NCBI GenBank assembly: GCA_045611765.1
Contig: JAZKXT010000006.1
Span: forward strand, 32,203 to 96,202
From: Clostridia bacterium
Lineage (GTDB): Bacteria > Bacillota > Clostridia > TANB77 > CAG-465
Length of the DNA: 64,000 nucleotides
Direction of reading: 5' to 3'
In this document: positions 8,030 to 39,627 of the stretch, one piece after another
Numbering within the stretch: the stretch's first letter is position 1
How the letters are laid out: every line of letters starts with the position of its first letter
The notes under the pieces: generated by a model
The model's database searches: none
What the model saw: only the letters and a program-made list of their open reading frames with translations
Told to the model about the DNA's origin: nothing
Position numbers and translations under genes: made by a program

Positions 8030-8036
8030 TATAATG

Positions 8037-8064: not shown

Positions 8065-8082
8065 AATGTAAATGAGGTTATT

Positions 8083-9751: not shown

Positions 9752-10428
9752 AAGATGAAATACTGATGACTAAAAATAAAAAATGCTGTATCTTACCTTT
9801 AAGATATGGTGAACTTATAACAGAATCTAAAGACATAAAGATAACAGATATTAAAAAGTTAGTTAAAGATACTTGCTGTAAAAAAGCATTTTTAAAAGGA
9901 GTGTTTTTGGGCAGTGGTTGTGTTGTAAATCCAAATACAGATTATCATTTTGAAGTTACAACTAAATCTAAAGTATATGCAGACTATGTTATAAAACTTA
10001 TGAGTGAATTTGAGCTTTCTTCTAAGATAATTAAAAGAAATTCTAACTATGTTATATACTTAAAGGATTCCGAACAGATATCTACTTTACTTGCTGTTTT
10101 AGAAGCAAACAAAGCAGTTTTAGAGTACGAAAATATTAGAATAAGCAAAAGTATAACAAATAATATAAATAGAAGTGTAAATTGTGAAACTGCAAATTTA
10201 ACTAAAACAATTGAAGCAGCAGTAAAACAGCAAGAAGCAATAAATAAACTAAAGTCAGAGGACAGGTTTAACGAGCTTAATCCAAGGCTGAAAGAAATCG
10301 CCTCTTTAAGATTAAAATATCCAGAGGCCTCTTTAGATGAACTGGCTGAAAAATGCTCATATAAAATATCTAAATCTGGAGTATATCACAGATTAAATAA
10401 AATTATTAAAATAGCGGAGGAAGAGTAA
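9730..10428 (+). CDS. whiA: WhiA-family DNA-binding protein, unusually short
   Basis: MSFSEQIKDE...KKCC N-terminus and a C-terminal HTH-like tail are typical of WhiA. At 232 aa it is about 80 aa shorter than canonical WhiA. Confidence 0.5.
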   Translation: MSFSEQIKDEILMTKNKKCCILPLRYGELITESKDIKITDIKKLVKDTCCKKAFLKGVFLGSGCVVNPNTDYHFEVTTKSKVYADYVIKLMSEFELSSKIIKRNSNYVIYLKDSEQISTLLAVLEANKAVLEYENIRISKSITNNINRSVNCETANLTKTIEAAVKQQEAINKLKSEDRFNELNPRLKEIASLRLKYPEASLDELAEKCSYKISKSGVYHRLNKIIKIAEEE

Positions 10429-11549
10429 TGCTTGGTGCATATATACATATACCTTTTTGTGCGTCTAAATGCTTTTATTGTGATTTTTATTCGTGTGTAA
10501 ATAAAACAAATATAGAAGAGTATATAGATGCAGTAATAAAAGAAATAATGTCTGAAGCAGAGCTTTTATCTGTTAGGGGATTAAACACAATATATATAGG
10601 TGGCGGAACACCAAGTGTAATAGATTCAAAATATATTGTAAAGATTTTAGATGTACTTAAATTGTTTGTGACAGAGGATGCGGAAATAACAATAGAGGTT
10701 AATCCTGAATCTGTAACGGAACAAAAACTCCAAGATTATTTTGATGCTGGTGTAAATCGTATAAGTATAGGCCTGCAGTCCGCAAATGATACTACGCTTA
10801 AAAAAATTGGAAGAATAGCAACGCTAAAAGACTTTGAGAGAGCATATAACACTGCTATTAAAGTGGGATTTAAAAATATATCTTGCGATGTTATGATAGG
10901 CTTACCAGATGAAACATTAGATATGTTTGAAAACACAGTAGATTATGTTTTGGGTTTAGAACACATTACACATATATCTGCATATAGCTTAGAAATACAC
11001 GAAAATACTAAGCTGGATTTTCTAGTAAATAATAACTTTGTAACGCTTCCTGATGAAAATGTAGAGCGTGAAATGAAATATATACTAGATAAAAAATTAG
11101 AAGAGCATGGTTTTAATAGATATGAGATATCTAATTATGCTAAGCCGGGTTATGAATCAAAACATAATCTTAAATATTGGAATCAAGAACAGTATTTGGG
11201 TTTTGGCGCAGCAGCATCTAGCTTTGTAAATAGTATAAGATACACAAATATATACGATATAGATAAGTATATAGCCAATATACCAAGCGGTACAAGCAAT
11301 AAACAAGATATAGAAGAAATGGATAAGCTAGGCATTATAAAAGAATATATAATTTTAAGATTAAGATTAAAACAAGGAATTAATACTCTTGAGTTTAAAA
11401 CAAAATTTAAGCAAGATATATATGAACTATATAAAGAAAATATAGACAAACTAATAAACGAAGGCTTGCTACAAAGGGTTGGAGACAATCTAGCCTTAAC
11501 ATATAAAGGAGAAGACCTAGCAAATATTGTTTGGCAAGAGTTTATATAG
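10428..11549 (+). CDS. hemW: Radical SAM heme chaperone HemW (HemN-like, oxygen-independent coproporphyrinogen III oxidase-like)
   Basis: AYIHIPFCASKCFYCDF radical-SAM CxxxCxxC near the N-terminus, about 373 aa, HemN C-terminal domain. Confidence 0.85.
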   Translation: MLGAYIHIPFCASKCFYCDFYSCVNKTNIEEYIDAVIKEIMSEAELLSVRGLNTIYIGGGTPSVIDSKYIVKILDVLKLFVTEDAEITIEVNPESVTEQKLQDYFDAGVNRISIGLQSANDTTLKKIGRIATLKDFERAYNTAIKVGFKNISCDVMIGLPDETLDMFENTVDYVLGLEHITHISAYSLEIHENTKLDFLVNNNFVTLPDENVEREMKYILDKKLEEHGFNRYEISNYAKPGYESKHNLKYWNQEQYLGFGAAASSFVNSIRYTNIYDIDKYIANIPSGTSNKQDIEEMDKLGIIKEYIILRLRLKQGINTLEFKTKFKQDIYELYKENIDKLINEGLLQRVGDNLALTYKGEDLANIVWQEFI

Positions 11550-11577
11550 CGTACACACAAAATAAATGGAGGAATAT

Positions 11578-18140: not shown

Positions 18141-21100
18141 ATGCTACAAATAAAAAATATATCTAAAAAATATAAAACAGGGGAGTTAGTACAAATTGCA
18201 TTAAATGACGTAAGCTTAAACTTTAGAGACAACGAATTTGTATCTATTTTAGGACCAAGTGGTAGTGGTAAAACTACGTTGCTTAATATAGTAGGTGGGT
18301 TAGATAGATATGACACAGGTGATTTAATAATAAACAATGTATCTACTAAAGACTATAAAGATAGAGACTGGGATTCATATAGAAACCACACTGTTGGTTT
18401 TGTGTTCCAAAGCTATAACTTGATACCTCATCAAACGATACTGGCAAACGTTGAACTGGCTTTAACTATTGGTGGTATTTCTAAGGGAGAAAGAAAGAGA
18501 AGGGCATTAGAAGCATTGGACAAAGTTGGGTTAAAAGACCAAGCACACAAAAGGCCAAACCAAATGTCTGGTGGACAAATGCAAAGAGTTGCTATCGCGA
18601 GAGCCTTGGTCAATAATCCAGACATACTTCTCGCTGACGAACCAACGGGAGCTTTAGATACAGAAACAAGCGTACAGGTTATGGAACTTCTAAAAGAAGT
18701 AGCAAACGATAGACTTGTTATAATGGTAACTCACAACCCAGAACTTGCAGAAACATATTCTACAAGAATAGTTAAATTAAGGGATGGAAAGGTAATTGAT
18801 GATTCGAATCCATGTTTCATAGAAGACAAAAAGAAGGAGAAACCTAAATACAAAAACCTAGGTAAGGCTTCAATGTCAATAATGACAGCGTTATCTTTAA
18901 GCTTTAACAATTTACTTACTAAAAAGGGAAGAACAATACTTACAGCATTTGCGGGCTCAATAGGTATAATTGGCATAGCTCTTATTCTGGCTTTATCTAC
19001 TGGCTTTCAAAATTATATAGACAAGATACAAGAAGATACCTTGACATCATATCCGTTAACAATAACGTCCGAAACTGCTGATGCAACATCAATGATTTTA
19101 TCTATGGTGCCGGGTGAAAGTGAACCAAGAAACGATGACATTGTAAAAGAGAACAAAAACTTCACTAATATGTTTTCAAAAATAGGAGAAAATGACCTTA
19201 AATCTCTCAAATACTTTTTACAAGATAATAAGAAAAAAGTAGATAGTATGGTGGCGTTAACTCAATATAGATATAATGTGAGCCCACTCATATATACTAA
19301 AGATGTAAAAGGGAACATAACAAAATTGAATCCAAGTGAAATTCTTGCATCTATGTACGGAGGAGATTCAATATTATCCATGGCTAGCGGCACAGTATCT
19401 GTATTTACTGAAATGATAGATAACGATGCTATGGCTAAAAGCTCATACCAAATGTTAAAAGGAAATTGGCCACAAAATTATGATGAAGTATTATTGGTAC
19501 TTCCAGCAGAAAATGAAATTTCAGACTTGTTGTTATTTAGCTTAGGATTAAAAGATATAAAAGAACTAGAGAAAATGTTAACCAATATAACGCAAGGCGA
19601 AGGAACTGAAGATAACACAGCACCTCTCGAACTTACATATGATGAACTTATGAACATAGAACTTAAACTTATACATGCTTCTGATACCTACAAATATAAT
19701 AGTAAATATAAAGTATATGAGGATATGGCAACAGATAAGAAGTTTATGGAAAACCTATATAATAATTCTCTAAAATTAAAAATAGTTGGAATTGCAGCTC
19801 CAAAAGACAGTTCAAATTCTTCCAACCTAATGTCGGGAGTATTATATAAAAAAGAACTCACAGAGTATGTAATAAATACGGCAGCTGAATCTGAAATAGT
19901 AAAAAAACAACTAGAAAATAAAAATATAAATGTATTTAGTAATAAATACTTCGATGACGAACAAGATAACACAGGCCTCAACTTCGAGGATATGATATCT
20001 ATAGATACAAATATGTTATCTTCAGCCTTCGGTGTAAAAATTGATGAGAAGGATATAGCAAATATGACAGAGGGCTATATGAGCGAAATATCTAAAGCCA
20101 TTACAACAGATACATCCAAAGCAGAAAAAGCGTTTATAGATACTTTAGCTTCCATTACAAAAGGTTTACTAAATAACTATATAGATAGTAGTGAGGTTGT
20201 AGGCTTTGCTACAATTAAACTAAGTCAGGTAGACAGCGTGGTAAACAAGTATATGCAATCAGAAGCAGTGATAGCTTTACTGACTGAGTTAGAAAAAGAA
20301 TATGTTATACCAAAAGATACATTTACTACAATGTACTCTGAAATTATTAAAGGCTTCTTTAAGCAGTATATATCTATGATGGATTCTACTTCTGAAGATC
20401 CAAGCGCTATGCTTGTAAAAAGTGCTGTCGATACGATAGTTGCAGCGTTTACATCACAGGAAATGATTTTGACTACTGCCAAAACCATGGGCGGCAAAAT
20501 GGTAGAAGCCTCTATGAATAAAACGATTCTAACAACAGTAGGGGAGCTAAGCGGGAAATTAATGTCAACTATGGCATCCGCATTTAATGTTGACGAAAGT
20601 AAAATTGCAAAAGCATTTAAATTTAATTTAGATGAAGATGAACTAAAAAGATTATTCCAAGCTATGACAAATACAACTACAAAGAGTTCTGAGACCAATT
20701 TAACTTCTCTTGGTTACCAAAATTTAGATGAACCAACCGCAACATCTTTTTATTTTAAAGACTTTGCATCAAAAGAAAACTTTATATCTTTTTTAGACGA
20801 GTATAATAATCAAATGGAAAAAGAAGACGATGAAAAAGTTATAAAATATACAGACATAACTGGAATATTAATGTCATCTGTGAAAGTAATAGTAGATAGT
20901 GTAAGCTACGTCCTTATAGCATTTGTAAGTATATCTTTAATAGTATCATCAATTATGATAGGTATAATTACATACATTTCTGTACTTGAGCGTACTAAAG
21001 AAATTGGCGTATTAAGAGCTATAGGAGCATCGAAGAAAAACATTTCATCTATATTTAACGCAGAGACATTTATAGTTGGACTATTTGCAGGACTTCTTGG

Positions 21101-21305
21101 TATAGGGGTATCGCTATTACTACTATTCCCAATAAATGGCATAATACATGCTGTTACAAACAATATGAATATAACAGCAGTACTTCCAACATCGGGCGCA
21201 ATTGTACTAGTAATACTAAGCGTAATACTTACACTTATTGGTGGATTAATTCCATCAAAACAAGCTGCTAAGAAAGACCCAGTACTTGCTCTTAGAAGTG
21301 AGTAA
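18141..21305 (+). CDS. MacB-type fused ABC transporter (ATPase plus FtsX-like permease) with a roughly 600-aa extracytoplasmic domain
   Basis: Walker A GPSGSGKTT, signature LSGGQMQR, Walker B LLADEPT, TM1 around aa 265-290, long hydrophilic domain, three C-terminal TM helices. Confidence 0.8.
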   Translation: MLQIKNISKKYKTGELVQIALNDVSLNFRDNEFVSILGPSGSGKTTLLNIVGGLDRYDTGDLIINNVSTKDYKDRDWDSYRNHTVGFVFQSYNLIPHQTILANVELALTIGGISKGERKRRALEALDKVGLKDQAHKRPNQMSGGQMQRVAIARALVNNPDILLADEPTGALDTETSVQVMELLKEVANDRLVIMVTHNPELAETYSTRIVKLRDGKVIDDSNPCFIEDKKKEKPKYKNLGKASMSIMTALSLSFNNLLTKKGRTILTAFAGSIGIIGIALILALSTGFQNYIDKIQEDTLTSYPLTITSETADATSMILSMVPGESEPRNDDIVKENKNFTNMFSKIGENDLKSLKYFLQDNKKKVDSMVALTQYRYNVSPLIYTKDVKGNITKLNPSEILASMYGGDSILSMASGTVSVFTEMIDNDAMAKSSYQMLKGNWPQNYDEVLLVLPAENEISDLLLFSLGLKDIKELEKMLTNITQGEGTEDNTAPLELTYDELMNIELKLIHASDTYKYNSKYKVYEDMATDKKFMENLYNNSLKLKIVGIAAPKDSSNSSNLMSGVLYKKELTEYVINTAAESEIVKKQLENKNINVFSNKYFDDEQDNTGLNFEDMISIDTNMLSSAFGVKIDEKDIANMTEGYMSEISKAITTDTSKAEKAFIDTLASITKGLLNNYIDSSEVVGFATIKLSQVDSVVNKYMQSEAVIALLTELEKEYVIPKDTFTTMYSEIIKGFFKQYISMMDSTSEDPSAMLVKSAVDTIVAAFTSQEMILTTAKTMGGKMVEASMNKTILTTVGELSGKLMSTMASAFNVDESKIAKAFKFNLDEDELKRLFQAMTNTTTKSSETNLTSLGYQNLDEPTATSFYFKDFASKENFISFLDEYNNQMEKEDDEKVIKYTDITGILMSSVKVIVDSVSYVLIAFVSISLIVSSIMIGIITYISVLERTKEIGVLRAIGASKKNISSIFNAETFIVGLFAGLLGIGVSLLLLFPINGIIHAVTNNMNITAVLPTSGAIVLVILSVILTLIGGLIPSKQAAKKDPVLALRSE

Positions 21306-23975: not shown

Positions 23976-24370
23976 AAAATAGCGAAATCCATATAAGTTA
24001 GATAGGGCAAGGCATAGAAGGTCAAGAACCGTTTATTTTGTCTTGCTTTATTTCGCAAAATAAATATTTTGTGTATTTTAGAGAAGGAACTATTGATTAT
24101 TTAGTCCACTTCTATTATAATATTAGTATACATAGCTTATATGCTGTCTGACACCTTATATATATAAATATATTTATTTAACTTTCTATTTCACTCTACT
24201 TATTATAAGTTGTCATTCATTACTATATTATTTTACTATATATTTTATATTTAGTATATACTTTTATATACAATTTATAAAATTTTATGATTTTAAGCCC
24301 TTTTCCTCAAATTCGATTTTAAAGGCCTTTTTTCGGACGTCAAATGATACCACCCCGATTCTAAAAACGT

Positions 24371-24400
24371 CTTAAAATCGATTTTAGAGCGTCGGTTTTT
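24371..24400. repeat. Right inverted repeat (IR-R), ending at the recombinase RBS
   Basis: CTTAAAATCGATTTTAGAGCGTCGGTTTTT is the reverse complement of IR-L (24 bp perfect). A degenerate third copy AAATTCGATTTTAAAGG lies at 24310-24326. Confidence 0.8.
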
Positions 24401-24410
24401 GGAGGTTTTT

Positions 24411-25367
24411 ATGAAACAAATGACATTTGATGATATGCCAAGGATTTTACAAGATTATCTTAAGAATTACTTAATAATTACTAAAAACAGATCTAAAACA
24501 ACTGTTAAAGAATATTATTATGATTTACGTGATGCATTTCAATTTATTAAACGAGATAAATATAATATTAAAGTTGAAAATTTTAAAGAAATAAATATTA
24601 CGGATTTAGATGCAAATTTTTTTAAATCAATTGAAGTTTCAGATATATATGAATATTTATATGATAAAAATACTAAAGCAATTTCTAGAGCTAGAAAAAT
24701 TTCATCAATTAGATCATTTTTTAATTATTTGTGTAATGTTGTAAAAATTATTGATAGAAATCCTTGTGTGGGTCTAGAATCGCCAAAATTAGAAAAAAGA
24801 TTGCCAAAATATTTAGAACTTACCGAGGCCAAGTCCCTACTCCACTCTGTTGATGGTGAATTCAAAACAAGAGACTATGCAATCTTAACCATATTCCTAA
24901 ACTGTGGACTAAGACTTTCTGAGCTAGTAAATATAAATATGGAGCATATTAAAGGAGATACTTTATCTGTTATTGGTAAGGGTAATAAAGAACGCTCTGT
25001 ACACTTAAATAAAGCCTGCTTAGATGCTATCCAGGATTATCTTAAGGATAGACCAATAGATAAGGTTAAAGGCGAAGATAGACGTGCTCTTTTCATTAGC
25101 AGGAAGTATAAAAGGATAAGTCCTAGAATGATTGAAATAATGGTAAAAGACTATATTGTAAAGGCTGGTCTTGACCCTAAAAAGTATACTCCCCACAAAC
25201 TTAGACACACTGCAGCTACTCTAATGCACAAATATGGTGGCGTAGATATTAGAACGTTACAACAAGTACTAGGACACGAAACTATAGCTACTACGCAAAT
25301 ATATACTCATATAGACAGCGAAGAAGTTAAAAATGCCATAGATAACAATCCATTAAATAAGATGTAA
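24411..25367 (+). CDS. Tyrosine site-specific recombinase (XerC/XerD/RecV-like)
   Basis: C-terminal catalytic region HKLRHTAATL...LGHETIATTQIYTHI with R..H..R..Y residues. ATG at 24411 follows GGAGG. Confidence 0.85.
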   Translation: MKQMTFDDMPRILQDYLKNYLIITKNRSKTTVKEYYYDLRDAFQFIKRDKYNIKVENFKEINITDLDANFFKSIEVSDIYEYLYDKNTKAISRARKISSIRSFFNYLCNVVKIIDRNPCVGLESPKLEKRLPKYLELTEAKSLLHSVDGEFKTRDYAILTIFLNCGLRLSELVNINMEHIKGDTLSVIGKGNKERSVHLNKACLDAIQDYLKDRPIDKVKGEDRRALFISRKYKRISPRMIEIMVKDYIVKAGLDPKKYTPHKLRHTAATLMHKYGGVDIRTLQQVLGHETIATTQIYTHIDSEEVKNAIDNNPLNKM

Positions 25368-25456
25368 TTAGTATAATTTGAAAAATCACAAGTATTATGT
25401 TATAATATTTGTGGTTTTATTATTAGCTCTAAAATAATTTTAAGGAGATGTTTGAA

Positions 25457-25732
25457 ATGAAAAATGACCGGTTTTACATTAGCTGTACTGATAAAAGAGT
25501 AGTTATTACATTCACTGTTTCAATTGTTATTGCAATATTAGCAACTATGTTGCTCTGTACAGGAGGTTTTCTTCCTCTTATACCAGCTAATTTACAATTA
25601 GTAGGTTGGATATGCGTTTGGACACTTTGCTACTGTGGTTGGATAATCTCTCTTTCTCTGTTAGGTATACTCTTGATTGGTATTGTTGGTAAAATTTTAT
25701 CTAATAAAAATACTAAGAAAAAGAATATTTAA
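25457..25732 (+). CDS. Small membrane protein
   Basis: Two or three TM helices. Terminator hairpin at 25741-25775 (ACACAGCAAC/GTTGCTGTGT). Confidence 0.45.
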   Translation: MKNDRFYISCTDKRVVITFTVSIVIAILATMLLCTGGFLPLIPANLQLVGWICVWTLCYCGWIISLSLLGILLIGIVGKILSNKNTKKKNI

Positions 25733-25783
25733 TAAATAGTACACAGCAACAATTATATGTTGCTGTGTAATTTTATATTATTT

Positions 25784-26080
25784 CTAATTATATATAGGTA
25801 TTTCTAATATTTGTCCTGAATATATGTTACTACTTTTTAAGTTGTTTATATTCTTTATTTCAATTACTATATTCTGTACATTTAATTCTTCAGAAGAGTT
25901 ATTACAAACATCTTCAGCTATTTTCCAAAGAGTATCGTTACTAGCAACAGTAACTGACTTTGTATCTATATGTTTGTTTCCAAAAGTGAAATTGGAAATA
26001 AAATTCATTACTATAATAAACAATAAAATTATGCATATATTTGTCATTATTCTTTTCATATTTAATCTATATCTTTTCAT
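25784..26080 (-). CDS. LysM-domain protein with N-terminal TM
   Basis: LysM-like VTVASNDTLWKIAE...GQILEIP. Start at 26080 is preceded by GGAGG. Confidence 0.6.
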   Translation of the reverse strand: MKRYRLNMKRIMTNICIILLFIIVMNFISNFTFGNKHIDTKSVTVASNDTLWKIAEDVCNNSSEELNVQNIVIEIKNINNLKSSNIYSGQILEIPIYN

Positions 26081-26291
26081 AATATTACCTCCGAACCTCT
26101 GTTCTGTTAATATTATATAGCACAAATGTTCGTTTGTCAACAATATTTTTAAAATTTATCGAAAATTTGTTCGCTTTTGCACAGCGGATGATATTATGTT
26201 TACTACACTTGTTTTTTTGCTGTTACTGTGGTATAATTTAAACATTACCAAAATAAATCCTAAAATAATTTAAAGGAGATTGTGTTGTGTT

Positions 26292-26723
26292 ATGAAAACG
26301 AAAAAAATTACTTTGATAATCATTCTAACTCTTTTAAGTGCAATAATTTTCGGGCTGCTAGCTCATTTTGCTATTGCACCGGCGCTTAATGAGATAAATG
26401 AAACTTTTGAATCGTTACAAACCAAATCAGCGATTTATGAAAAAGACTTTGAAAAAGTATATTCACATCCAAACTACTCTATTTACCCCGAAAAAAATTT
26501 AACTGTTGTGGAGCTTAAAGAAAACGGCTTCTCTCTTAAAATGTATTATATGCAGGATGGTACTTTTGTAACGAGTGAAATAGTTGATTATGATTTTTAT
26601 ACCAACAATTTTGTGATTGGTTTCATATGGCTTCTCGTTGCGCTACTGTCATTTATGATTTCTCTCCTTATTACAATGCTAGGAATTGGGATGTGCGGCG
26701 GACTACTTGAAAGACGGCATTAA
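26292..26723 (+). CDS. Hypothetical membrane protein
   Basis: Two TM segments. Terminator hairpin AAGACGGCA/GCCGTCTT overlaps the 3' end. Confidence 0.4.
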   Translation: MKTKKITLIIILTLLSAIIFGLLAHFAIAPALNEINETFESLQTKSAIYEKDFEKVYSHPNYSIYPEKNLTVVELKENGFSLKMYYMQDGTFVTSEIVDYDFYTNNFVIGFIWLLVALLSFMISLLITMLGIGMCGGLLERRH

Positions 26724-30059: not shown

Positions 30060-30094
30060 AAATATCTGCCCATTCAGTGGACAGATATTTTTTA
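30060..30094. terminator. Bidirectional terminator between the glucan-synthase operon and the tig promoter region
   Basis: AAATATCTG-loop-CAGATATTT followed by TTTT. Confidence 0.65.
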
Positions 30095-30133: not shown

Positions 30134-30463
30134 TTATTCGCTTATGACGCCAGCTTCTGTTAGAAAATCTTTCATGTCTAAAAGACTTTCGAATCTCAAG
30201 GAACAATATACTGCTACTGCATTTTTTATAGAACTGAAGTCCATATTATGAGTGTCTTTAGTTGGCTCATTCATGATTAATTTGGCTTTATATTTCTCTT
30301 GTGCCTTTTCTATCAATTCTACAATATCCACCAGAACACTTTGTTCTGTTTGTGATATGAGTGACCGTGGAACTTTGCTAAATGCGCTAATAAATAACGC
30401 AGGTACAGGTAAAGTGGCGACTTTATATGTATATATAGTTTTAAACATAATGTATTCCCCCAT
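30134..30463 (-). CDS. Hypothetical protein, last gene of the glucan-synthase operon
   Basis: 109-aa ORF 114 nt downstream of the GH94 gene. Confidence 0.35.
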   Translation of the reverse strand: MGEYIMFKTIYTYKVATLPVPALFISAFSKVPRSLISQTEQSVLVDIVELIEKAQEKYKAKLIMNEPTKDTHNMDFSSIKNAVAVYCSLRFESLLDMKDFLTEAGVISE

Positions 30464-30577
30464 TGCATAGTTAGTAATGTGTTTATTTTCAGCAAATATA
30501 TTATATCACAAACATTATGTAAATTCAACAGTTTAAAGGATAGATTAACAGTAAGTTTATCTATCCTTTATTAAACA

Positions 30578-32695
30578 TTATTCTTCTTTCTTTTTTCTAG
30601 TTGTTATCCTTGGTTTCTTTACAGGAACGGCATTAACTTTTGTTGCTTTTTTTGTGTTTCCACTTTGACTAAAATTGTCTTCAACAACCTTATACATCCA
30701 AGCCGCCGAACCAGTATACCAAGTCCAACCACCACGTCCTATATGATTTTCATTGGCATAAACATCTGCCGCTACAACGTAAGGCTCAACCATATATATG
30801 TCAGCTTTATCTTTACTATCACTGTGATTTATTGGATTTAAAATGTGTAATATATCTAAAGCTTTTTCGGGCTCCCCTATTTCGAAATATGCTTTTGCAA
30901 GCCATATAGCGCCATGCGTATATTGACCGCCATTTTCTCTTACCCCAGGAACATAAGCTTTTATATATCCTGGATTATATTTTGGATTATCAAAAGGTGG
31001 ATTTAATAGTTTTACAACATTGTGTTTTCTATCTACTAAATATTTTTCTGCTGATTCTAGGCTAGATTTTATTTCGTCTTTTGTATCTATATAATCCTTT
31101 AAAGCTATTGCCGCCCAAGCTTGAGATATTAAGTCAATCTTACACTGTTCACTGTCAGGGGTTCCGAGAGGTGTTCCATCTGGGAAAAACGCCCTAGCAA
31201 AGTAATCTCCTGTCCAAGCAGAAGCAAATATGGCGTGTTTTAAAACGTGTCTTTCGCTCATGAATCTCATTTTGTTTACTTCATCCATTTTTAAATCTGC
31301 TATTTTTATAAATCTATCCAGTATATCCATCATAAAGAATGTAAGCCATACTGATTCACCTTTGATATTACTAAATCCGTCATTCCAATCGCCATCACCT
31401 ATAGATAAAAGTCCATGTCTACCTTTTCTAGATAGCCCATATTTAATAGCAATAAGCGCATGGTCATAAATACTTGCCGAGTTTTCTGTAGGAGCAAAAT
31501 AATCATAAAGTTCATCCCTATCTCCTAGCGGCTTATCCTCAAGGAAAGGAGCTTTTTCTTTTAATATTGATTCGTCCCCGGTTTTTAATATATACTCGCT
31601 TAATACGTAAGGTAACCATAGATAATCGTCACTAAAACGCGTTCTTATGCCTCTAGAATTATGTTCGTGCCACCAATGAAGAACATCACCTTGTTCGAAT
31701 TGTTTGGCAGCATGTTTTAAGATCTGAGCTCTTGTCCTTTGAGGCCATGATGAAATTAATGCAAGTGAATCTTGCAGTTGGTCTCTATAACCAAACGCGC
31801 CACCAGCTTGATATAAGCCTGTTCTTGCAAACAATCTTGATGCGATAGCTTGGTACATAAGCCAACCATTTGCCATTATATCTACATATTCATTTCCAGT
31901 ACTAAAATTACGAACTACTTTATTTCTCCAATACATTTTAGTGTTTTCATATTCACTAAATATGTTCTTTTCATCGTTATATTTATTTATAACATTTTCT
32001 ATTACCTCTAGGCCTTGGTCAGTTGCGCCAAATAAAATTGCTATCGTCGCTTGGTGGTCCTTTTTTACCATGCACTTAACACGTATTACTTTTTCGTCTT
32101 CATCATATTCGATGGAACCTTCTGAATCGTTTAATAAAATTGCCTTAGCATAGGATATCACATTGCTAAAAAATTCATTGTATGGATTTTTAAAATACAA
32201 CATGTCATTTTCACACTTGCATAGTACATAACTACTAGAAACTTCTTTAGCCACTCCCATTACCATATCTGGTCGATACTCTATAACAATTTCTTTATCT
32301 AGAGGTCTATTATTAGTAAGTGTTATGTAGTGAATTTTAACATCATCATCCATAGGAACAAATACATCCATATTTCTTTCTATGTTACCAAATTCACCTT
32401 TTACCTTAACATAGCCAAAACCATAGGTTAAGTTGTACGCGTTATCAAAAACGCCTTTAAAATGCTCTCCTGGAACAAAATCAGCCCAATCATTACACCA
32501 ATGTGTAAGTTTAAACTCTCCTGCATTTTTATAAAAAGAATATACTGTTCCATAAGTGGAAATTAGTGTTCCAAATCTTTCGTTTGTTAGAACGTTACAC
32601 CAAGGAAGCGGAGTATGAGTGTTCAAAATCTCATACTCATCTCCTGTTTTATTAAATCCGCCATATCCGTTAAAAGCTTTATATGTTTTATTCAT
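30578..32695 (-). CDS. GH94-family glycoside phosphorylase-like protein (cellobiose/chitobiose phosphorylase fold, corresponding to the C-terminal domain of cyclic beta-1,2-glucan synthase)
   Basis: GGQYTHGAIWLAKAYFEIGEPEKALDIL and GRGGWTWYTGSAAWMY are typical of GH94/GT36 catalytic domains. The start overlaps the upstream stop by 8 nt (ATGAATAA). Confidence 0.7.
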   Translation of the reverse strand: MNKTYKAFNGYGGFNKTGDEYEILNTHTPLPWCNVLTNERFGTLISTYGTVYSFYKNAGEFKLTHWCNDWADFVPGEHFKGVFDNAYNLTYGFGYVKVKGEFGNIERNMDVFVPMDDDVKIHYITLTNNRPLDKEIVIEYRPDMVMGVAKEVSSSYVLCKCENDMLYFKNPYNEFFSNVISYAKAILLNDSEGSIEYDEDEKVIRVKCMVKKDHQATIAILFGATDQGLEVIENVINKYNDEKNIFSEYENTKMYWRNKVVRNFSTGNEYVDIMANGWLMYQAIASRLFARTGLYQAGGAFGYRDQLQDSLALISSWPQRTRAQILKHAAKQFEQGDVLHWWHEHNSRGIRTRFSDDYLWLPYVLSEYILKTGDESILKEKAPFLEDKPLGDRDELYDYFAPTENSASIYDHALIAIKYGLSRKGRHGLLSIGDGDWNDGFSNIKGESVWLTFFMMDILDRFIKIADLKMDEVNKMRFMSERHVLKHAIFASAWTGDYFARAFFPDGTPLGTPDSEQCKIDLISQAWAAIALKDYIDTKDEIKSSLESAEKYLVDRKHNVVKLLNPPFDNPKYNPGYIKAYVPGVRENGGQYTHGAIWLAKAYFEIGEPEKALDILHILNPINHSDSKDKADIYMVEPYVVAADVYANENHIGRGGWTWYTGSAAWMYKVVEDNFSQSGNTKKATKVNAVPVKKPRITTRKKKEE

Positions 32696-35600
32696 CCGCT
32701 TTCACCTCATCCCATGTGTTTACTTCCTTGTTTATCTTTGGCATAAACTCTTCAATATCTTTAATTACGTGTTTGCCAACCAAATCAAACAAACCTCTTT
32801 CATCCTCTGGTATATTATTTAAATTAACTATATATATATTTCCTTTTGTATATGACATATATACAACTTTCTTAAGAATATCTTCAATATGTGTTTTTAT
32901 AGGTTCACCACTATATAGTTCTTCATCTACAAGTAGTACTATATCCACATCTACTTTTCTATATTTTGCATAATCCATAAATGATATTATTTCATCTACT
33001 ATTGCAGAATCTTCAAGTCTTCCTATTTTTACTGTCATAATTGGTATATCACCAGAAATGCCATATTTCCAAAGCATTGATTGACTAAATGATGCATTCC
33101 AAAAAGCGCTTTTATCCATATTCTTGTCTGAACCAAACATCAATTTAGCAATAATACTATTATATGCTTCCGCCTTACCCGGTTTTAATTTAAGATATTT
33201 TGCATTAACATTTTCTTTTTGAGCAGCAAACATAGCTTCTTTTTCTAGCGAATCATAATCCGCATTTACAATTGTATGAGAAATATTATATTTCGTATCT
33301 GCTGCGCCTGTTAAATAATAGAATGTTTGTGTTTCGCCGGGTTCTAACAATATCCTTGCCCTATATGACATTACTGGCCATAATGGGTATTTTACAAATT
33401 CTCCATCATAAGCCGTTTTGCCGCCATTAGATACAAGTTTAGATTTTTCTGTTTCCATTTCGTACTCGAAATCTATTCCTACCAATTTGGCAAACACATA
33501 AAATTCTTCTTCATCATTATTTCTAGAACGTTTTTTAGCAATGAGAGCTCCTAAATGTTCATCATAGTCTTCCTCTATTAAAAGGCTGTTAAATGCTGGA
33601 TGAATAATATTAGCTTTTTCCTCTGTCATTGCAAGTTCCAACTCGGTATTAATTACTATTTCTTTTCTCTCTTGTGAGGCGTTATATAATGTGTACTTGC
33701 GTATTTCCATATTATATTTAGGTGCTATAGAAATATTTGTTATTGTTTCTATATCTCCATCTTTTCTTCTATATTCGCTAGCAGCAAGTGAGTATGCTAA
33801 TGAATAGCTATCTGGTTCTTTATAATTTGGAGCATATGTTCCAGACCAAATCATTCCTGTTGATTTGTCTGTAAATATTACTTGATTTCCAAGAGTAATA
33901 TCCTTTACATATCTATTTTTTGTAATTGCATAATTTTTATAGTACATAAAGTTTGAACCATCATCTGTAAGCATAGTAGTGATTTTGCCGTTTGTATGAA
34001 TGTTTATCATTGGCATAAGTCTATTTTTAAACTTAGCATAATCTTCATATGATATGTGGCTTGTAAACTCCTCTTTTGCTGTTTGAACAAATTTGTTATA
34101 CCTAGAATGTATATTTTCTTTTATAGGAACAGCAAGTGGTATTCTTTCTTTTAAAAGGATCTCAGCCGCATCAATACTTGGATTTTCGTGGAATCTATTT
34201 TGTATAATTCCATCATTTATGTAATTGTTTATTGCTGTTAATATCATGCCCTGATGATGCGCCATATATGTTTTTACAACTTCATATTTTTTGTTTTTAC
34301 CAATATGAGTTTTAGTAAAGTCTACCGCTTCGTAAAATCCAAAATTAGAATATGAGTTATACTTCCTCAACGTTTTTATATTATTATAAACTTTCTTAGG
34401 AGCATATTGTAAACACATAAGAGACGAATAAGGAGATACAACCATATTATCATTTAAGCCCCTCTTAAGCCCCAACCAAGGTATTCCAAACGCTTTATAT
34501 TGATAATTTTGCTCGTTATCTTGAACAGCAAAAGCAGATTCAGATACACCCCAAGGCACTCCCACCGCTCTTGCATAATTCATTTGACTATCTAATGCAA
34601 AGCTTAATGCTTCATCGACTAGCGTATATTTATATGTTTTAGTAAATAGGTTTGGCATAAAGTACTCAAAACATGTTCCGCTCCATGATATAAGTCCTTT
34701 TGAACCATTCGCTTTAACTAGATTACGCGCTAGCGCAAACCAGTGTTTTGAAGTTATTTGAGACGTTGCTATTGCTATCATACTCGTAAGTCTTGATTCA
34801 GACATTAGCATATCATAATAACTGTCTACCAATTTATTTCCTTCAAGATCATATCCTATGGAGAATATATTTCTGGATTTAGCATATAGTTTTGTAAAGT
34901 CAACTTCATTTATAACGTCTCTACATATGCCTAACATTTCATTAACTTGTGCATGTAGTTTTTCTATAACTATCTTAGATTTAGATAATTTCTTTAAGAA
35001 TATTTCTGCCACGTAAATACTAGCAATAAAGTTTCCACTATCTACTGTAGATATAAATCTTGGTCTTAATGGCTCTAAGGTTCTTGTATTATACCAGTTA
35101 TACAAATGACCGTTCCATTTTGGCAGCTTTTGTATAGTACTCAGTATGTTATGCATTTTATTTACAGCTTCTTCTAAAGCAATATATTCAAGGTCGTATG
35201 CATTAATTATTGCCATTATTCCATAACCTATATTTGTTGATGATGTTCTACCAACAACTTTTGGACGTCTATTTTCTTGATAGTTATCTGGCGGCAAGAA
35301 ATTACTTGCTTCATTCATTGTGCTATCAAAAAACTTCCAAGTCCTCTTTCCTATTTCTAATATGTCTTGTCTTTCCTTGTTATCTAACTTTCCGGTAGAT
35401 TCAAATATTACTTTTTTGCTCATTATATATGCTGCATAAGGGGCTATCAATATAAATCCTGTAAATATTAAAGTGAATATTTGCTTGCCGTAAGAAAAAT
35501 CGTTTAGTGCTACCATAACAATAAGTAAAGCTGCGTATAAAAGGTTTGGCATCATATTTTTATATACATATGGCAATTTTTCTTTTGCGCCTTTTTCAAT

Positions 35601-38222
35601 AGTTTCAGCTGTCGCCCATTCAAGAAGTTTTTTCTTTGATATAAACATTCTATATAATGACGTGCAGAATGCATTTAATGTAGTCCAAGCTTTATATGGT
35701 AAAGTAATTATATTAAATACCATTTTTAAAAGATTGGCTCTAAGCCCATAAATCACTGGTATATATTGTTTTTGTTTTCTTTCAGCATTTCTCCCAAAAA
35801 CTAATTGGTCAAGTACTGATAACAAATATCCAAAGTTCATTACTGTAAATGTAACGATTACCGAATAAGTGAAGCTGTTTCCCGGTATAAATATTGATAC
35901 TATTAAAAGTAACATTGAAAGAATGTCCAATGCTTCTCTTCTTAGGTTGTCAAAAATTTTCCAACGAGATAATAAATTTAGTCCACTCTTTGGTCTAAAC
36001 AACCAAGATATTATCTGCATATCACCTCTAAACCATCTGTGATTTCTTTTCATATATGCAATAAAGTTTGATGGGAAGCCATCTTGTACTTCTACATCAG
36101 ATGCAAGTCCCGTTCTCATAAAACTGCCTTCTAAAAGGTCGTGACTTAATATTAGATTTTCAGGCACTTTATCTCCTATTAACTTATCAAAAAGTTCTAT
36201 ATCATAAATACCTTTACCTGTATAGATGGCCTCTTTAAACAGATCTTGATATACATTAGATATTGCATTTGTATATATGTCTAATCCGCCGAATCCGCCG
36301 AATACTTTTGAGAATATGCTATTGTTTGCAGATTCTATATCTAATCCCACTGCTGGTTGTATTAGTCCATAACCAGATTTTACTGTCTTTCCATTTTTAG
36401 AAAGTACTGGTTTATTTAGCGGATGTGATATAATTGCAACTAACTCTTTTGCTGAATTAAGAGAAAGCGATGTATCCTCGTCTATAGTTATCATGTATTT
36501 AACTTCAGGAATTTCTCTGTGTGCCAAGTACATACTATTTGCTATTTGGCCATCCGAAAGTTTATTTAAAAGAAGTGAGTTTAACTCTGTTAAAGCACCA
36601 CGTTTTCTCTCCCAACCCATATAGCAACCTTCAGATTCCGAATACACTCTTTTTCTGTATAAAAAGTTAAACAATTTTGGCTCTGATGGATATTTTGCAT
36701 TTAGTTCATCTATTAATTTTTTACCATGTTTTACCACCTTGTAGTCTAGGTCGATATATTCCTTATCACTCGATGTACAGTCGCCAAGCAACATATAATA
36801 CATGTTTTGTGAACGGTTGGCAAGATATGTTACTTCCATCTTTCTTATCATCTTATCTAATTTTTCTGTAGAATTAATCACTGTAGGCATTGCTATCATG
36901 GTACTTGTCTCTTTGTCTATAGTCTTTGCAAAGTTAAATCTAGGAAGTGGTTCTGGTCTAACCAACTTTCCAACAAAATATGCTATAGTTTTATCTGCAA
37001 TTTCCATTCCATATGCAAATAGAACAATATCTATTATGACTCTGTACAATATACTAAAGTTTCCTATAAACACTCTATCTACAAATGCTGTAAATATTGT
37101 GGCTATAGCAAGTATGGATAATATATATATATATGCTTTTATAGGTCTAAAAATATAGTTATTGAATGTTATTCCGAAAGTACTTCTCTTCATCATTTTA
37201 ATTAAAAGTACCTTGTCTTCACCAATCAAAAAATGCCCCACGTGTTTTTCGTATTTGTATGAGCATTCTACTGCCTTCTTAGCAACATACATTTCAGAAA
37301 CCTTATATTTCTTAGCAAGTTTTATTATTGTATGTCTATATCTTGCTTTTGTCTTATGATCACACTTTATATACTCTTTTGTATAATCTTCTTTTAATAT
37401 TTCATCTATTCTGTTTACATTAACTATTACATCACCCCAGTTAGTTGATGCAACTGTTTTCATAGACATAATAGAGTTAGATATAAGGCTTGTAGTTTTT
37501 GCTATTTCATCGTGTTCTTTTTCTATTGCTTCATCTATTGTGAAACCAGTTTTAGTTGTTTCTTCTTTAAACTCTTCAAAAAACTCTTCACCTCTAGATC
37601 CCAAGTCTTTTAGTCTATATGCCATATATTCTACATACGCTGTATTGCTAGTTTTTACACCTGTATTTACAGTAAGTTCGTTTTTAATATTTCTTATACT
37701 CTTTAACGATTTGGTAGTTATTTTGTCGGCATATCTAGAAATAGCTTTGTTAAGTCTTTTTTCCACTTTAAGCTTTTGCATCTCAGCATTAAATATATTA
37801 ACACATATCCTCTTTATATATTTTATAAGAGCAACTCTAATCATTATTGGAAGGACTGACAATTCTTCAAATGTTACATAAGTGTTTTTTTGAAACTCTC
37901 TAACGTAGTTACTTACGATTCCATCGTCCACAATTCCATTGTTGCGACTTACTATCTCATCGGCCATAAACATGATCCTTAAAGAGTGTTTGTTGTCCGC
38001 CGGTTTTACTGTAGGCATGCCAACCTTAATTTCAAAACGCAATGCGTTTTTTGCTATATTATATTCTTGTTCTATAATATACATGTTATCTAATAGCCAT
38101 TGACCAGCAGAATGTGAAGGGATTTTTAAATCACTATTCATATTAAGCAAGTCATAAGTGGCTTTAATTATTCTAAAAGAATTCTTTAATTCGTAGTCCA
38201 TTTCAAATAAGAAATCTTGCAT
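32688..38222 (-). CDS. Cyclic beta-1,2-glucan synthase-like multidomain membrane protein (NdvB/Cgs-like: N-terminal soluble region, multi-TM GT84-like glycosyltransferase, glucan-processing alpha/alpha-barrel-like domain)
   Basis: 1844 aa. GT motifs ITIDEDTSL (D.D) and NHRWFRGDMQ (xRW). At least 10 TM helices flank the GT domain. Followed by a coupled GH94 gene. Confidence 0.65.
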   Translation of the reverse strand: MQDFLFEMDYELKNSFRIIKATYDLLNMNSDLKIPSHSAGQWLLDNMYIIEQEYNIAKNALRFEIKVGMPTVKPADNKHSLRIMFMADEIVSRNNGIVDDGIVSNYVREFQKNTYVTFEELSVLPIMIRVALIKYIKRICVNIFNAEMQKLKVEKRLNKAISRYADKITTKSLKSIRNIKNELTVNTGVKTSNTAYVEYMAYRLKDLGSRGEEFFEEFKEETTKTGFTIDEAIEKEHDEIAKTTSLISNSIMSMKTVASTNWGDVIVNVNRIDEILKEDYTKEYIKCDHKTKARYRHTIIKLAKKYKVSEMYVAKKAVECSYKYEKHVGHFLIGEDKVLLIKMMKRSTFGITFNNYIFRPIKAYIYILSILAIATIFTAFVDRVFIGNFSILYRVIIDIVLFAYGMEIADKTIAYFVGKLVRPEPLPRFNFAKTIDKETSTMIAMPTVINSTEKLDKMIRKMEVTYLANRSQNMYYMLLGDCTSSDKEYIDLDYKVVKHGKKLIDELNAKYPSEPKLFNFLYRKRVYSESEGCYMGWERKRGALTELNSLLLNKLSDGQIANSMYLAHREIPEVKYMITIDEDTSLSLNSAKELVAIISHPLNKPVLSKNGKTVKSGYGLIQPAVGLDIESANNSIFSKVFGGFGGLDIYTNAISNVYQDLFKEAIYTGKGIYDIELFDKLIGDKVPENLILSHDLLEGSFMRTGLASDVEVQDGFPSNFIAYMKRNHRWFRGDMQIISWLFRPKSGLNLLSRWKIFDNLRREALDILSMLLLIVSIFIPGNSFTYSVIVTFTVMNFGYLLSVLDQLVFGRNAERKQKQYIPVIYGLRANLLKMVFNIITLPYKAWTTLNAFCTSLYRMFISKKKLLEWATAETIEKGAKEKLPYVYKNMMPNLLYAALLIVMVALNDFSYGKQIFTLIFTGFILIAPYAAYIMSKKVIFESTGKLDNKERQDILEIGKRTWKFFDSTMNEASNFLPPDNYQENRRPKVVGRTSSTNIGYGIMAIINAYDLEYIALEEAVNKMHNILSTIQKLPKWNGHLYNWYNTRTLEPLRPRFISTVDSGNFIASIYVAEIFLKKLSKSKIVIEKLHAQVNEMLGICRDVINEVDFTKLYAKSRNIFSIGYDLEGNKLVDSYYDMLMSESRLTSMIAIATSQITSKHWFALARNLVKANGSKGLISWSGTCFEYFMPNLFTKTYKYTLVDEALSFALDSQMNYARAVGVPWGVSESAFAVQDNEQNYQYKAFGIPWLGLKRGLNDNMVVSPYSSLMCLQYAPKKVYNNIKTLRKYNSYSNFGFYEAVDFTKTHIGKNKKYEVVKTYMAHHQGMILTAINNYINDGIIQNRFHENPSIDAAEILLKERIPLAVPIKENIHSRYNKFVQTAKEEFTSHISYEDYAKFKNRLMPMINIHTNGKITTMLTDDGSNFMYYKNYAITKNRYVKDITLGNQVIFTDKSTGMIWSGTYAPNYKEPDSYSLAYSLAASEYRRKDGDIETITNISIAPKYNMEIRKYTLYNASQERKEIVINTELELAMTEEKANIIHPAFNSLLIEEDYDEHLGALIAKKRSRNNDEEEFYVFAKLVGIDFEYEMETEKSKLVSNGGKTAYDGEFVKYPLWPVMSYRARILLEPGETQTFYYLTGAADTKYNISHTIVNADYDSLEKEAMFAAQKENVNAKYLKLKPGKAEAYNSIIAKLMFGSDKNMDKSAFWNASFSQSMLWKYGISGDIPIMTVKIGRLEDSAIVDEIISFMDYAKYRKVDVDIVLLVDEELYSGEPIKTHIEDILKKVVYMSYTKGNIYIVNLNNIPEDERGLFDLVGKHVIKDIEEFMPKINKEVNTWDEVKADE

Positions 38223-38350
38223 ATTTTCACCTCTTAATCATTCATTTGGATTATATACTAAACACATAATATTTTCAAGGCTTTTAGAGTATTATTTGCA
38301 CTTTATTTGGTTAATATTTTGTTTCTACTTTTTACCAATTTTTGCGTTCT

Positions 38351-38398: not shown

Positions 38399-38887
38399 TT
38401 ATAATTTTTTATTGTCTTTTTTAGATGTAATTTTTTTCTTAATGTACTTTATTAATTCGTATACCATAACCGGTGTAAGCAGTATTAATAATAATATACA
38501 AGATGACATGTAACCAATTGAAAAACCAAATAAAACGAAGATTAATGTAAATGTTATACTAGAGCCAATTCGATTATCTCTTATTATAGCATTAATAAAC
38601 TCATTATTCTCATCAAAGAATGCTTCTAAAATATGCCGTTCGCCCTTTATTTCAACCGTCATTCCTGAATCTTCGAGCTTTATTGTTGCGTCTTCTAGCA
38701 GGTAGATACTGCTAGTATCCTCTTTCACCATTTCTAATTGTTCATAATGCTTTTGTAGTTCAGCCGCATCTATTGGAACTTGCATATCAACAATGACAAA
38801 CAGTAGTGCAAGTAGTGCGCAACATAGGCCAATGGCGATTAGCCAGTCATGACCTTTTTCACCTAAATAGTTCTTATACTTCTCCAT
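38399..38887 (-). CDS. Hypothetical membrane protein
   Basis: TM segments. Start at 38887 is preceded by AAAGGGG. Confidence 0.4.
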   Translation of the reverse strand: MEKYKNYLGEKGHDWLIAIGLCCALLALLFVIVDMQVPIDAAELQKHYEQLEMVKEDTSSIYLLEDATIKLEDSGMTVEIKGERHILEAFFDENNEFINAIIRDNRIGSSITFTLIFVLFGFSIGYMSSCILLLILLTPVMVYELIKYIKKKITSKKDNKKL

Positions 38888-39135
38888 AGAATCTATCCCC
38901 TTTAAAATATATATTAAACTATTATAACATACCTTAACGCTATCGTTAACAACTGCATACATTGCCTATACATCTAGCAATAAAACAGTACTAATTTTCT
39001 CATCTCCTTATAAATTATTATTAAGGATATATTAAACAGTCTTTAATTATTATACAACATTGTTTACATAATGTCAAGCACAAGCTTAAATGTATACATA
39101 AAACCAAGACAGTACGTCTTGGTTTTATATGTTTA

Positions 39136-39627
39136 TTATTCATCTTGCTCTTGAGTTTGACTTTTTGCTTCTGTTTTAGCCTGCTTTTCCTTCTCCAGTT
39201 TAGATAATGCAATATCCAGTGCACCAAGCAGAATAAACGACCAACCAGCCGTTACAAAAGCTATTGATACCAAGAGAGCTATCGCCGCGCCTAAATTCGT
39301 TCCCAACCTTGAATCTTCAAATTCTTTCGTTAATACCTCTCCCTGTTTGTTATATATTGTCTTTAAAGAACAATCCGCGCTCTCGAACACGACAACAACA
39401 TCGCTTTCATTAATGTAGCAAGTCACTCCGTTTAGCTCGTATGCATTCGCAAAGCTTTGTTGCACTAACTTATCTTTTTCATATAAATTGTTGATTTGAT
39501 CGTCTATGCTTCTTGAAGAATCTAAGAAGATAAATAGCGCGGATAAGGCTGTTGCTATGATTGTAATAAATATAACCATAGCCATCGCGTACTTTTTTAA
39601 AAATTTTCTAGATTTCATAACAATCAC
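39136..39627 (-). CDS. Hypothetical membrane protein with acidic C-terminal tail
   Basis: Two TM helices plus a KQAKTEAKSQTQEQDE tail. Confidence 0.4.
   Translation of the reverse strand: MIVMKSRKFLKKYAMAMVIFITIIATALSALFIFLDSSRSIDDQINNLYEKDKLVQQSFANAYELNGVTCYINESDVVVVFESADCSLKTIYNKQGEVLTKEFEDSRLGTNLGAAIALLVSIAFVTAGWSFILLGALDIALSKLEKEKQAKTEAKSQTQEQDE

Follow-up and report, generated by a model that had tools for sequence, protein, structure and literature searches.

A predicted cyclic β-1,2-glucan synthase encoded by two translationally coupled genes in gut Clostridia

Can a cyclic β-1,2-glucan synthase (Cgs) be encoded by two genes, or are the two adjacent open reading frames (ORFs) on the reverse strand of a Clostridia contig (JAZKXT010000006.1) one gene that was broken by an indel? 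Cgs is a large machine (~320 kDa in a single chain) whose expression and dissection are difficult, and every characterized member of the family carries all of its modules on one polypeptide of ~2500-2900 aa. In contrast, the two ORFs discussed here, named cgsA and cgsB, are separated by a stop and a restart. The stretch of DNA analyzed, called the window, is 64,000 nt long with ~31% GC, and all coordinates refer to the whole window unless another locus is named. The evidence presented below supports the conclusion that the locus encodes a Cgs/ChvB/NdvB-type synthase, as predicted from its sequence, from two translationally coupled genes, and that it is not the result of a frameshift.

The two genes and their junction

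32688-38222 (-): ORF A, cgsA; 1844 aa, predicted membrane-anchored large subunit with an N-terminal scaffold domain (NTD), transmembrane helices (TM) 1-2, GT84, TM3-6, GH189 cyclase, GP1 and RFL
30578-32695 (-): ORF B, cgsB; 705 aa, predicted soluble small subunit with GP2, GP3 and a Lys-rich tail
32688-32708 (-): coupling junction; GAGGTG Shine-Dalgarno (SD) sequence at 32703-32708, 7-nt spacer, and the ATG of B over the TAA of A (ATGAATAA)

The two genes overlap by 8 nt (ATGAATAA), with the ATG of B at 32695-32693 and the TAA of A at 32690-32688; the coding strand at this point reads ...GAGGTGAAAGCGGATGAATAA... and the frame of B is +1 relative to that of A. The GAGGTG sequence lies inside the 3' end of A, 7 nt 5' of the ATG of B. 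Both products match Cgs proteins (E 7e-248 for A and 1.5e-131 for B), and ORFs of 1844 and 705 aa with such E-values in 31% GC DNA are far beyond chance. The initial annotation of this DNA had already described an 1844-aa and a 705-aa ORF overlapping by 8 nt, with the Cgs/NdvB/ChvB layout; the coordinates and junction sequence agree with that description, and the layout is borne out by the Pfam, 8RF0 and 8WY1 matches and by the presence of the D.D and RW motifs.

Conservation of the split

A scan of one genome per GTDB species returned 30 metagenome-assembled genomes (MAGs) with a homologue of B, all of them from uncultured Clostridia/Bacillota and obtained from gut samples of human (Hadza), sheep, roe deer, rabbit and others. 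No exact copy of the B protein of the window was found on a database record, the best relatives being 90-92% identical, and the best 120 database homologues (90% to 57% identity) are without exception standalone proteins of 615-722 aa. A homologue of A (1809-1885 aa) lies directly upstream of B, on the same strand, in each of the 27 loci that include upstream DNA, and the pair is intact in all 26 intact species-level MAG loci with such DNA. At one locus from a roe-deer rumen MAG (L027, ~4460-12035), the homologues of A and B are each found in two ORFs, and tig-clpP-clpX does not follow downstream.

The junction itself varies: the genes overlap by 1, 8, 11, 14, 17 or 38 nt in 20 loci and are separated by gaps of 1-2 nt in three and of 17-129 nt in four, although the starts of B in the relatives were set at the nearest ATG by homology and a few overlap lengths are uncertain. 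An ATG opens each B, and an SD sequence (GAGGTG/GGAGG) is usually located within the 3' end of A. All 18 functional residues examined (15 of them in A), which cover the three active sites and the primer Tyr, are invariant in 27 of 27 species, though identity to the window drops to 49% for A and 55% for B. Comparison with the four closest relatives gave dN/dS values of 0.04-0.11 for A and 0.05-0.07 for B.

These data bear on two explanations that would leave the synthase fused. It is very improbable that one protein is still made through programmed ribosomal frameshifting or stop-codon bypass at the junction, as might be imagined from the ATGAATAA overlap, which brings the frames into contact with B at +1 relative to A in the window: all three frame relations occur among the relatives, stop-containing spacers reach 129 nt, no slippery motif or structure is conserved across the junctions, and most species have a canonical SD and ATG in front of B. 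Programmed frameshifting was thus rejected, since neither frame relation nor spacer is conserved. The probability that a sequencing or assembly error shifted the frame, or that an indel recently pseudogenized a fused cgs, is negligible: an 8-nt overlap in different frames is a possible outcome of a single indel, and such artefacts occur, as in the apparent split of P0217 (L035), near-identical to the fused P0257, but the present split recurs in 26 species-level MAGs from different studies and hosts, with many overlap and gap lengths and frames and an ATG with the usual SD, B stands alone in its best 120 homologues, the catalytic residues are invariant, and dN/dS is ~0.05 in both genes.

The split is therefore real; the junctions vary across species, and a single indel cannot explain them. 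The earlier proposal of coupled translation without a frameshift holds, the split being kept in 26 other species with differing junction geometry. Nor did the analysis turn up what the initial annotation had named as grounds against it: the glycosyltransferase is GT84-like and not of an unrelated family, B belongs to GH94, and a single indel cannot yield so many junction types.

CgsA: synthesis and cyclization modules

37137-38222 (-): N-terminal scaffold domain, aa 1-362; residue 36 corresponds to residue 86 of Agrobacterium tumefaciens (Atu) Cgs, and the boundary is taken from the first TM pair
35943-36935 (-): GT84 domain, ~aa 430-760, from residue-level alignment to 8RF0
35424-37136 (-): three hydrophobic hairpins, aa 363-402, 763-804 and 891-933, equated with six TM helices flanking or following GT84
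34137-35366 (-): GH189 cyclase, aa 953-1362; 8WY1, E 1.2e-127
33183-34013 (-): GP1, the first GH94 β-supersandwich, aa 1404-1680; homologue of SOGP Ndom1 and of the cellobiose phosphorylase N-terminal domain
32691-33089 (-): RFL (Rossmann-fold-like) subdomain, ~aa 1712-1834, followed by a short charged tail, aa 1835-1844

Among proteins of solved structure, A is matched by the cryo-electron microscopy models of Atu Cgs (8RF0/8RF9, E 7.4e-248) and by 8WY1 (E 3e-127), while Pfam recognizes a weak GT2-type Glyco_trans_2_3 match at 578-790, DUF3131/Glycoamylase at 959-1348 and the GH94 supersandwich at 1404-1639. In the GT84 domain, D481 (the UDP-binding Asp), R539, D581/D583 (the DxD motif), D695 (the catalytic base), R729/W730 and R732 are equivalent to Atu D527, R586, D624/D626, D739, R773/W774 and R776. 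Because the DxD motif falls at 624/626, the chain numbering of 8RF0 was taken as the native numbering used by Sedzicki et al. The primer tyrosine, Atu Y694, corresponds to Y650 of A in the IF1-homology loop, so that glucosylation of this residue is predicted. Atu Cgs has a six-helix TM domain around the glycosyltransferase (PMC10901819), and the three hydrophobic hairpins of A, called from Kyte-Doolittle hydropathy only (19-aa windows >= 1.6), are consistent with it.

The middle domain of A had been described as a large glucan-processing domain, with GH144 and GH162 as the families to be checked. The family is instead GH189, with the residues of a retaining transglycosylase: D1061 corresponds to Atu D1104; E1142, the acid/base, to Atu E1300 and to E1356 of TiCGS, the Cgs of Thermoanaerobacter italicus; E1186 to TiCGS E1400; E1228, the nucleophile, to TiCGS E1442; and H1322/H1323 to TiCGS H1536/H1537. 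The best structural match for this domain is TiCGSCy (8WY1; PMC10834661), the founder of GH189 and, like the present protein, from a Firmicute; its E1442, E1356, E1400 and H1536/H1537 are all conserved in A. On the other hand, TiCGS is treated as a single CGS protein with numbering beyond 1590 (PMC10834661), and it has a long insert between the cyclase halves that is absent from A.

A does not have the ~120-aa four-helix cyclase (CY) insert, which mediates back-to-back dimers of Agrobacterium Cgs (PMC10901819). The short CY insert was considered as a trait specific to the split and was rejected as such, because the nearest fused relatives share it. Downstream of the cyclase, GP1 covers positions 3-251 of the 251-position PF06165 profile and aligns with cellobiose phosphorylase residues 23-269; the RFL subdomain that follows is equivalent to Atu residues 1847-2012 (PMC10901819).

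CgsB and the position of the break

B comprises GP2, a second sandwich with a helical linker (aa 8-254), GP3, an (alpha/alpha)6 barrel (aa 255-672), and a tail (aa 676-705). Pfam detects a partial GH94 supersandwich at 86-185 and the GH94 catalytic domain at 255-672 (E 2.8e-96), and no hydrophobic segment was found in B by Kyte-Doolittle analysis. The protein matches the C-terminus of 8RF0 with an E-value of 1.5e-131, whereas free cellobiose phosphorylases reach only ~4e-50. D305 and the catalytic D439 correspond to Atu D2393 and D2528, and H594 is the histidine of GGQYTH.

Where the polypeptide is cut follows from alignment with Agrobacterium Cgs, which answers the earlier question of which domain boundaries coincide with the split. 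Between them, A and B cover Atu Cgs over its entire length. The C-terminal 460 residues of A align to Atu 1564-1938, continuing to ~2012, and residue 7 of B is equivalent to Atu 2047 (chain 8RF9 numbering + 19). By this alignment the break is in the RFL|GP2 linker (~Atu 2012-2040), inside the phosphorylase module and not between cyclase and phosphorylase. When split and fused relatives are aligned, the cut coincides with a charged linker of variable sequence, flanked on one side by the conserved GNIYIVN... with which RFL closes and on the other by the conserved (A)FNGYGGF that opens GP2, and no domain sequence has been lost there. The initial annotation placed GH94 on a separate ORF; the catalytic barrel does reside on B, but the module itself is divided, with GP1 and RFL remaining on A and only GP2-GP3 on B. 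All subdomains of the GP1-RFL-GP2-GP3 module, including the catalytic Asp, are present across the two proteins; the GH94 C-terminal domain is not.

This difference is seen in the number of residues that follow the last barrel motif: 10-18 in 17 species and a Lys-rich tail of 39-56 aa in the 10 closest, the window included, against a median of 88 in fused proteins (n=89) and 82-89 in the nearest fused relatives. In the window, residues 676-705 of B (30581-30670, -) form a low-complexity Lys/Thr-rich tail (...KKATKVNAVPVKKPRITTRKKKEE) in place of the GH94 C-terminal domain, and such a tail also replaces it in the nine closest relatives; this tail might bind to the membrane or to another polyanion.

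Comparison with characterized enzymes

Atu Cgs/ChvB (8RF0/8RF9; PMC10901819), Brucella Cgs and Sinorhizobium NdvB share with CgsAB the module order NTD, GT84, six TM helices, cyclase, GP1, RFL, GP2 and GP3, and the functional residues reported for the Atu enzyme (D527, R586, D624/626, Y694, D739, R773/R776, D1104, E1300, D2393 and D2528) are all conserved in CgsAB. However, enzymes of the Atu type are one chain of ~2800-2900 aa, whereas CgsAB totals 1844 + 705 = 2549 aa in two polypeptides, lacks the ~120-aa four-helix cyclase insert, the ~85-aa GH94 C-terminal domain and an adjacent ChvA/NdvA exporter, and, unlike them, is found in a Gram-positive-type gut Clostridia MAG. The family product is a cyclic β-1,2-glucan with a degree of polymerization of about 17-25 made from UDP-glucose, and the same product is predicted for CgsAB. 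An ABC exporter for periplasmic delivery (ChvA/NdvA/Cgt) is an accessory feature of Cgs and does not strictly define it.

Two groups of GH94 enzymes show how the phosphorylase module is organized when it stands outside Cgs. SOGP (PMC5309861) has the Cgs GP sub-architecture, Ndom1 plus Ndom2 plus barrel, with its pocket between Ndom1 and the barrel, but it is one soluble, catabolic monomer of ~1100 aa that includes the C-terminal domain; here Ndom1/GP1 is on CgsA and Ndom2 with the barrel on CgsB. B does not have the layout of the SOGP monomer, its first domain being Ndom2 (FNGYGGF at residue 8) and its barrel being followed by 39 aa. Dimeric cellobiose/chitobiose phosphorylases (3QDE, 2CQS and 1V7V) have the sandwich-linker-barrel layout of B, and their active site is shared by two subunits, one supplying the N-terminal domain and the other the barrel; the arrangement proposed below for A and B follows this logic. 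These enzymes are nevertheless one-gene homodimers that act on β-1,4 substrates and keep the C-terminal jelly-roll, and B groups with Cgs modules instead.

Origin of the split and other fissions

An exhaustive homologue search of 1.84 billion cluster representatives placed the whole split clade in one 50%-identity cluster (P0112), while almost all other strong matches are fused proteins of 2450-2990 aa with 38-45% identity. In a neighbor-joining tree of the GP2-GP3 region (145 sequences, 50 bootstrap replicates), the split clade of the window forms a monophyletic branch (100% bootstrap) that lies within the fused proteins, its nearest neighbors being the fused P0249 (70% support) and then P0132/P0170 (62%). 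P0249, an uncultured protein of 2634 aa (locus L036), is encoded as a single ORF, keeps an 87-aa C-terminal domain and is ~30-40% identical to B around the junction.

In at least 24 of the 27 loci, the genes that directly follow the split pair are tig-clpP-clpX, and P0249 occupies the same chromosomal slot, which also supplies the fused version in a related genome that the initial annotation had proposed to look for. This shared position indicates that the gene was split in place within a vertically inherited locus.

Other divided or partial relatives were found, those of L031-L034 on one contig each:

L033 (P0165), 2692-10040: 1768 + 679 aa with a 2-nt gap; RFL/GP2 break, different genomic context
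L032 (P0182), 1-2614: A-type C-terminus, 28-nt spacer and 669 aa; RFL/GP2 break, much more divergent
L034 (P0142), 2890-10743: 1678 + 934 aa; GP1/RFL break, groups with a fused protein at 98%
L031 (P0121), 764-3073: lone B-like GP2-GP3 gene; orphan, with no A within 760 nt, adjoining a ComEC-like gene and DUF3006
L035 (P0217): partial upstream gene + 984 aa; break before RFL, near-identical to fused P0257

The last of these was rejected as a natural split because its near-identity to P0257 makes it a probable artefact. The GH94 C-terminal domain is absent from P0165, the other RFL|GP2 split, and kept in P0142 and P0121. In addition, many proteins of 1130-1320 aa (e.g., P0207, P0208, P0219, P0240 and P0266) begin with a Met at the GP1 sandwich and group with the C-terminal modules of Cgs; such proteins may be Cgs-derived free GP-only (SOGP-like) proteins or further fission products.

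A probable two-subunit synthase and its alternatives

How would the two proteins work? The reading that we consider probable is a two-subunit Cgs in which the phosphorylase pocket is formed between CgsA and CgsB. CgsA would be anchored by its six TM helices with all domains on the cytoplasmic side, would glucosylate its own Tyr650 from UDP-glucose, and would elongate a linear β-1,2-glucan with its GT84 domain; the GH189 domain would then cyclize and release the chain by transglycosylation, with E1228 as nucleophile and E1142 as acid/base. CgsB, a soluble protein, would begin to be made by coupled translation from the same mRNA as the C-terminus of CgsA is completed, and the start-stop overlap would favor equimolar synthesis and assembly as the chains emerge. 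Docking of CgsB, presumably non-covalent, on the GP1-RFL end of CgsA would rebuild the rigid GH94 "glucan-binding landscape", and the phosphorylase pocket, built in trans from GP1 of CgsA and the barrel of CgsB, would trim chain length using phosphate.

Support for this model comes from work on the single-chain relatives. Truncation of Atu Cgs to residues 1-1846 abolishes function, while the D2528A substitution has a mild effect (PMC10901819), which suggests that the need for the C-terminal module is chiefly that of a scaffold. In LpSOGP the pocket lies between Ndom1 and the barrel, and dimeric GH94 enzymes form it at the interface of their subunits (PMC5309861); since GP1, the equivalent of Ndom1, is on A and the barrel on B, the split would leave each chain with one half of the phosphorylase pocket. 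The sandwich of B matches PF06165 only partly, as against the full profile in GP1 of A. The inactivity of Atu 1-1846, the SOGP and dimeric GH94 pockets, and the likeness of GP1 to the trans-acting cellobiose phosphorylase N-terminal domain together argue for obligatory assembly.

Several observations weigh against this model. The A:B complex, its shared active site, the cyclic product and the location of that product are all what we infer from homologues. A ChvA/NdvA-type exporter was found neither within the 64 kb of the window nor in flanks of 10 kb at the 27 loci. A Gram-positive cell, moreover, has no periplasm as a destination for a cyclic glucan. The ~85-aa GH94 C-terminal domain, which nearly all relatives keep, is absent from B, and this loss and the absent CY insert mean that the enzyme may differ in behavior from Atu Cgs. 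The orphan B-like gene of L031 indicates that GP2-GP3 proteins can persist alone, the broken genes of L027 reflect either decay or poor assembly, and the few uncertain overlap lengths count on the same side.

A bolder version of the two-subunit model, doubtful at present and drawn by analogy, is that CgsB is a dissociable subunit whose docking acts as an on-switch or product-length dial for CgsA, with a pocket that exists only in trans and corresponds to the ancestral GH94 inter-subunit site. This idea arises because removal of the equivalent region inactivates Agrobacterium Cgs, while killing phosphorylase catalysis does not.

A different explanation, and an unlikely one, is that CgsB is an independent soluble phosphorylase, perhaps a homodimer, that recycles or degrades β-1,2-oligoglucans to glucose-1-phosphate, while CgsA is self-sufficient and only genetically linked to it. 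The sandwich-linker-barrel layout of dimeric GH94 enzymes, the E-value of 4e-50 with cellobiose phosphorylases, the existence of an orphan B-like gene away from any A (L031) and the dispensability of the phosphorylase catalytic residue in Atu Cgs (PMC10901819) would all fit this proposal. However, B nests in Cgs C-terminal modules and not among free GH94 enzymes, and it has neither the C-terminal domain nor Ndom1/GP1, which forms half of the SOGP pocket, where the equivalent part of Ndom2 contributes only a short loop (PMC5309861). Tight translational coupling in almost all species and the inactivity of Atu Cgs truncated at 1846 (PMC10901819) also speak against independence. Moreover, no β-1,2-glucan utilization locus (sugar ABC importer, GH3, GH144) was found near the pair, whose neighbors are housekeeping genes.

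Likewise unlikely is an A:B complex with an altered product, namely a linear or differently sized β-1,2-glucan that would serve as cytoplasmic osmolyte or storage compound owing to the loss of the C-terminal domain and of the CY insert. Such a product would suit the lack of an exporter nearby and the missing C-terminal domain of B, and when the cyclization domain of TiCGS acts in isolation, the length of the substrate decides whether its products are cyclic or linear (PMC10834661). Yet all cyclase residues are invariant, the short CY insert is common to the nearest fused relatives and not tied to the split, and an exporter could be encoded outside the 64 kb seen.

Transcription signals and neighboring genes

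38250-38278 (-): promoter-like site of cgsA, TTGAAA-17-TATAAT, followed by an AGAGGTG SD 6 nt before the ATG; consensus match only
30535-30569 (-): hairpin right after the cgsB stop; minimum free energy -17.2 kcal/mol, z-score -4.9, 0 of 200 shuffles as stable, no clean U-run
30134-30463 (-): 109-aa ORF (ORF C), with its own promoter-like site with extended -10 (30500-30528) and a hairpin + U-run terminator (30060-30090)

Promoter-like matches in the region are not enriched over shuffled sequence (45 found against 52.6 expected). The hairpin after cgsB may be either the end of the operon or an attenuator. The 109-aa ORF that follows had been taken to be co-transcribed with the pair, which is unsupported: it has its own promoter-like site and terminator, and its homologues are present only in L001 and L021, the two closest relatives (34-50% identity; 27 loci). 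Pfam and family searches gave no significant match for it. On the same grounds (homologues in 2 of 27 loci, no family match, own signals), ORF C was rejected as a third component of the system.

The pair is surrounded by housekeeping genes: ileS and nifS lie on its upstream side (typA in relatives that are further removed), and tig, clpP and clpX follow it. A gene of ~603 aa found upstream in nine loci had the size of a candidate exporter, but it encodes TypA/BipA. Just upstream of cgsA there are two paralogous ORFs of 187 and 163 aa (38399-38962 and 39136-39627, -), present only in the four closest relatives and with no Pfam or NCBIfam match.

The other large ORFs of the window encode tRNA synthetases, RNase J, Rho, PolA and similar proteins. 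Of the large ORFs checked, a single one was noticed as an ABC transporter, a 1054-aa protein (18141-21305, +) with an ABC ATPase fused to an FtsX-type permease, MacB-like and not of the ChvA/NdvA type. An O-antigen-ligase-like membrane protein of 533 aa (925-2526, +) and a sensor histidine kinase with a 7TM N-terminal region and a PAS domain (61295-63022, -) have no evident link to cgsAB. Finally, gene orientation changes from + (1-25.7 kb) to - (25.8-58 kb), and the GC skew turns from positive to negative at the same place (24000-26500), the pattern expected of a replication terminus or an inversion boundary; a search near this switch for a dif core of the B. subtilis type gave no match with three mismatches allowed.

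Implications

By residue and domain comparisons, CgsAB is a predicted member of the Cgs family without the single polypeptide and without the GH94 C-terminal domain. The initial annotation regarded a split Cgs in a Gram-positive bacterium as unusual, and this is right with respect to the split, for which no description was found in the searchable literature (a Mycoplasma paper that surfaced is unrelated), but not with respect to the host, since Cgs in Firmicutes was already known from TiCGS, on which GH189 was founded (PMC10834661). Gene fission is common in evolution, and the predicted chemistry is unchanged. Nonetheless, the locus represents a natural domain dissection: the RFL|GP2 cut of this clade and the GP1|RFL cut seen in at least one further lineage mark where Cgs tolerates splitting, and they predict that GP2-GP3 is a separable, docking-competent unit. 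The two proteins also offer smaller constructs for asking whether the C-terminal module is a scaffold, a length-controller or both.

For the organisms, the finding means that a broad clade of gut Clostridia, uncultured and of low GC, from humans, ruminants and rabbits has the complete Cgs machinery as a core gene pair that is conserved, keeps its synteny and is under purifying selection. Cyclic β-1,2-glucans are known elsewhere as host-interaction factors. If CgsB does act as a switch, a widespread clade of gut Clostridia would make cyclic β-1,2-glucan as a core, vertically inherited trait in cells that have no periplasm. The pair thus raises the questions of what role this glucan may have in a monoderm gut commensal, where it is delivered, and whether it is perceived by the host.

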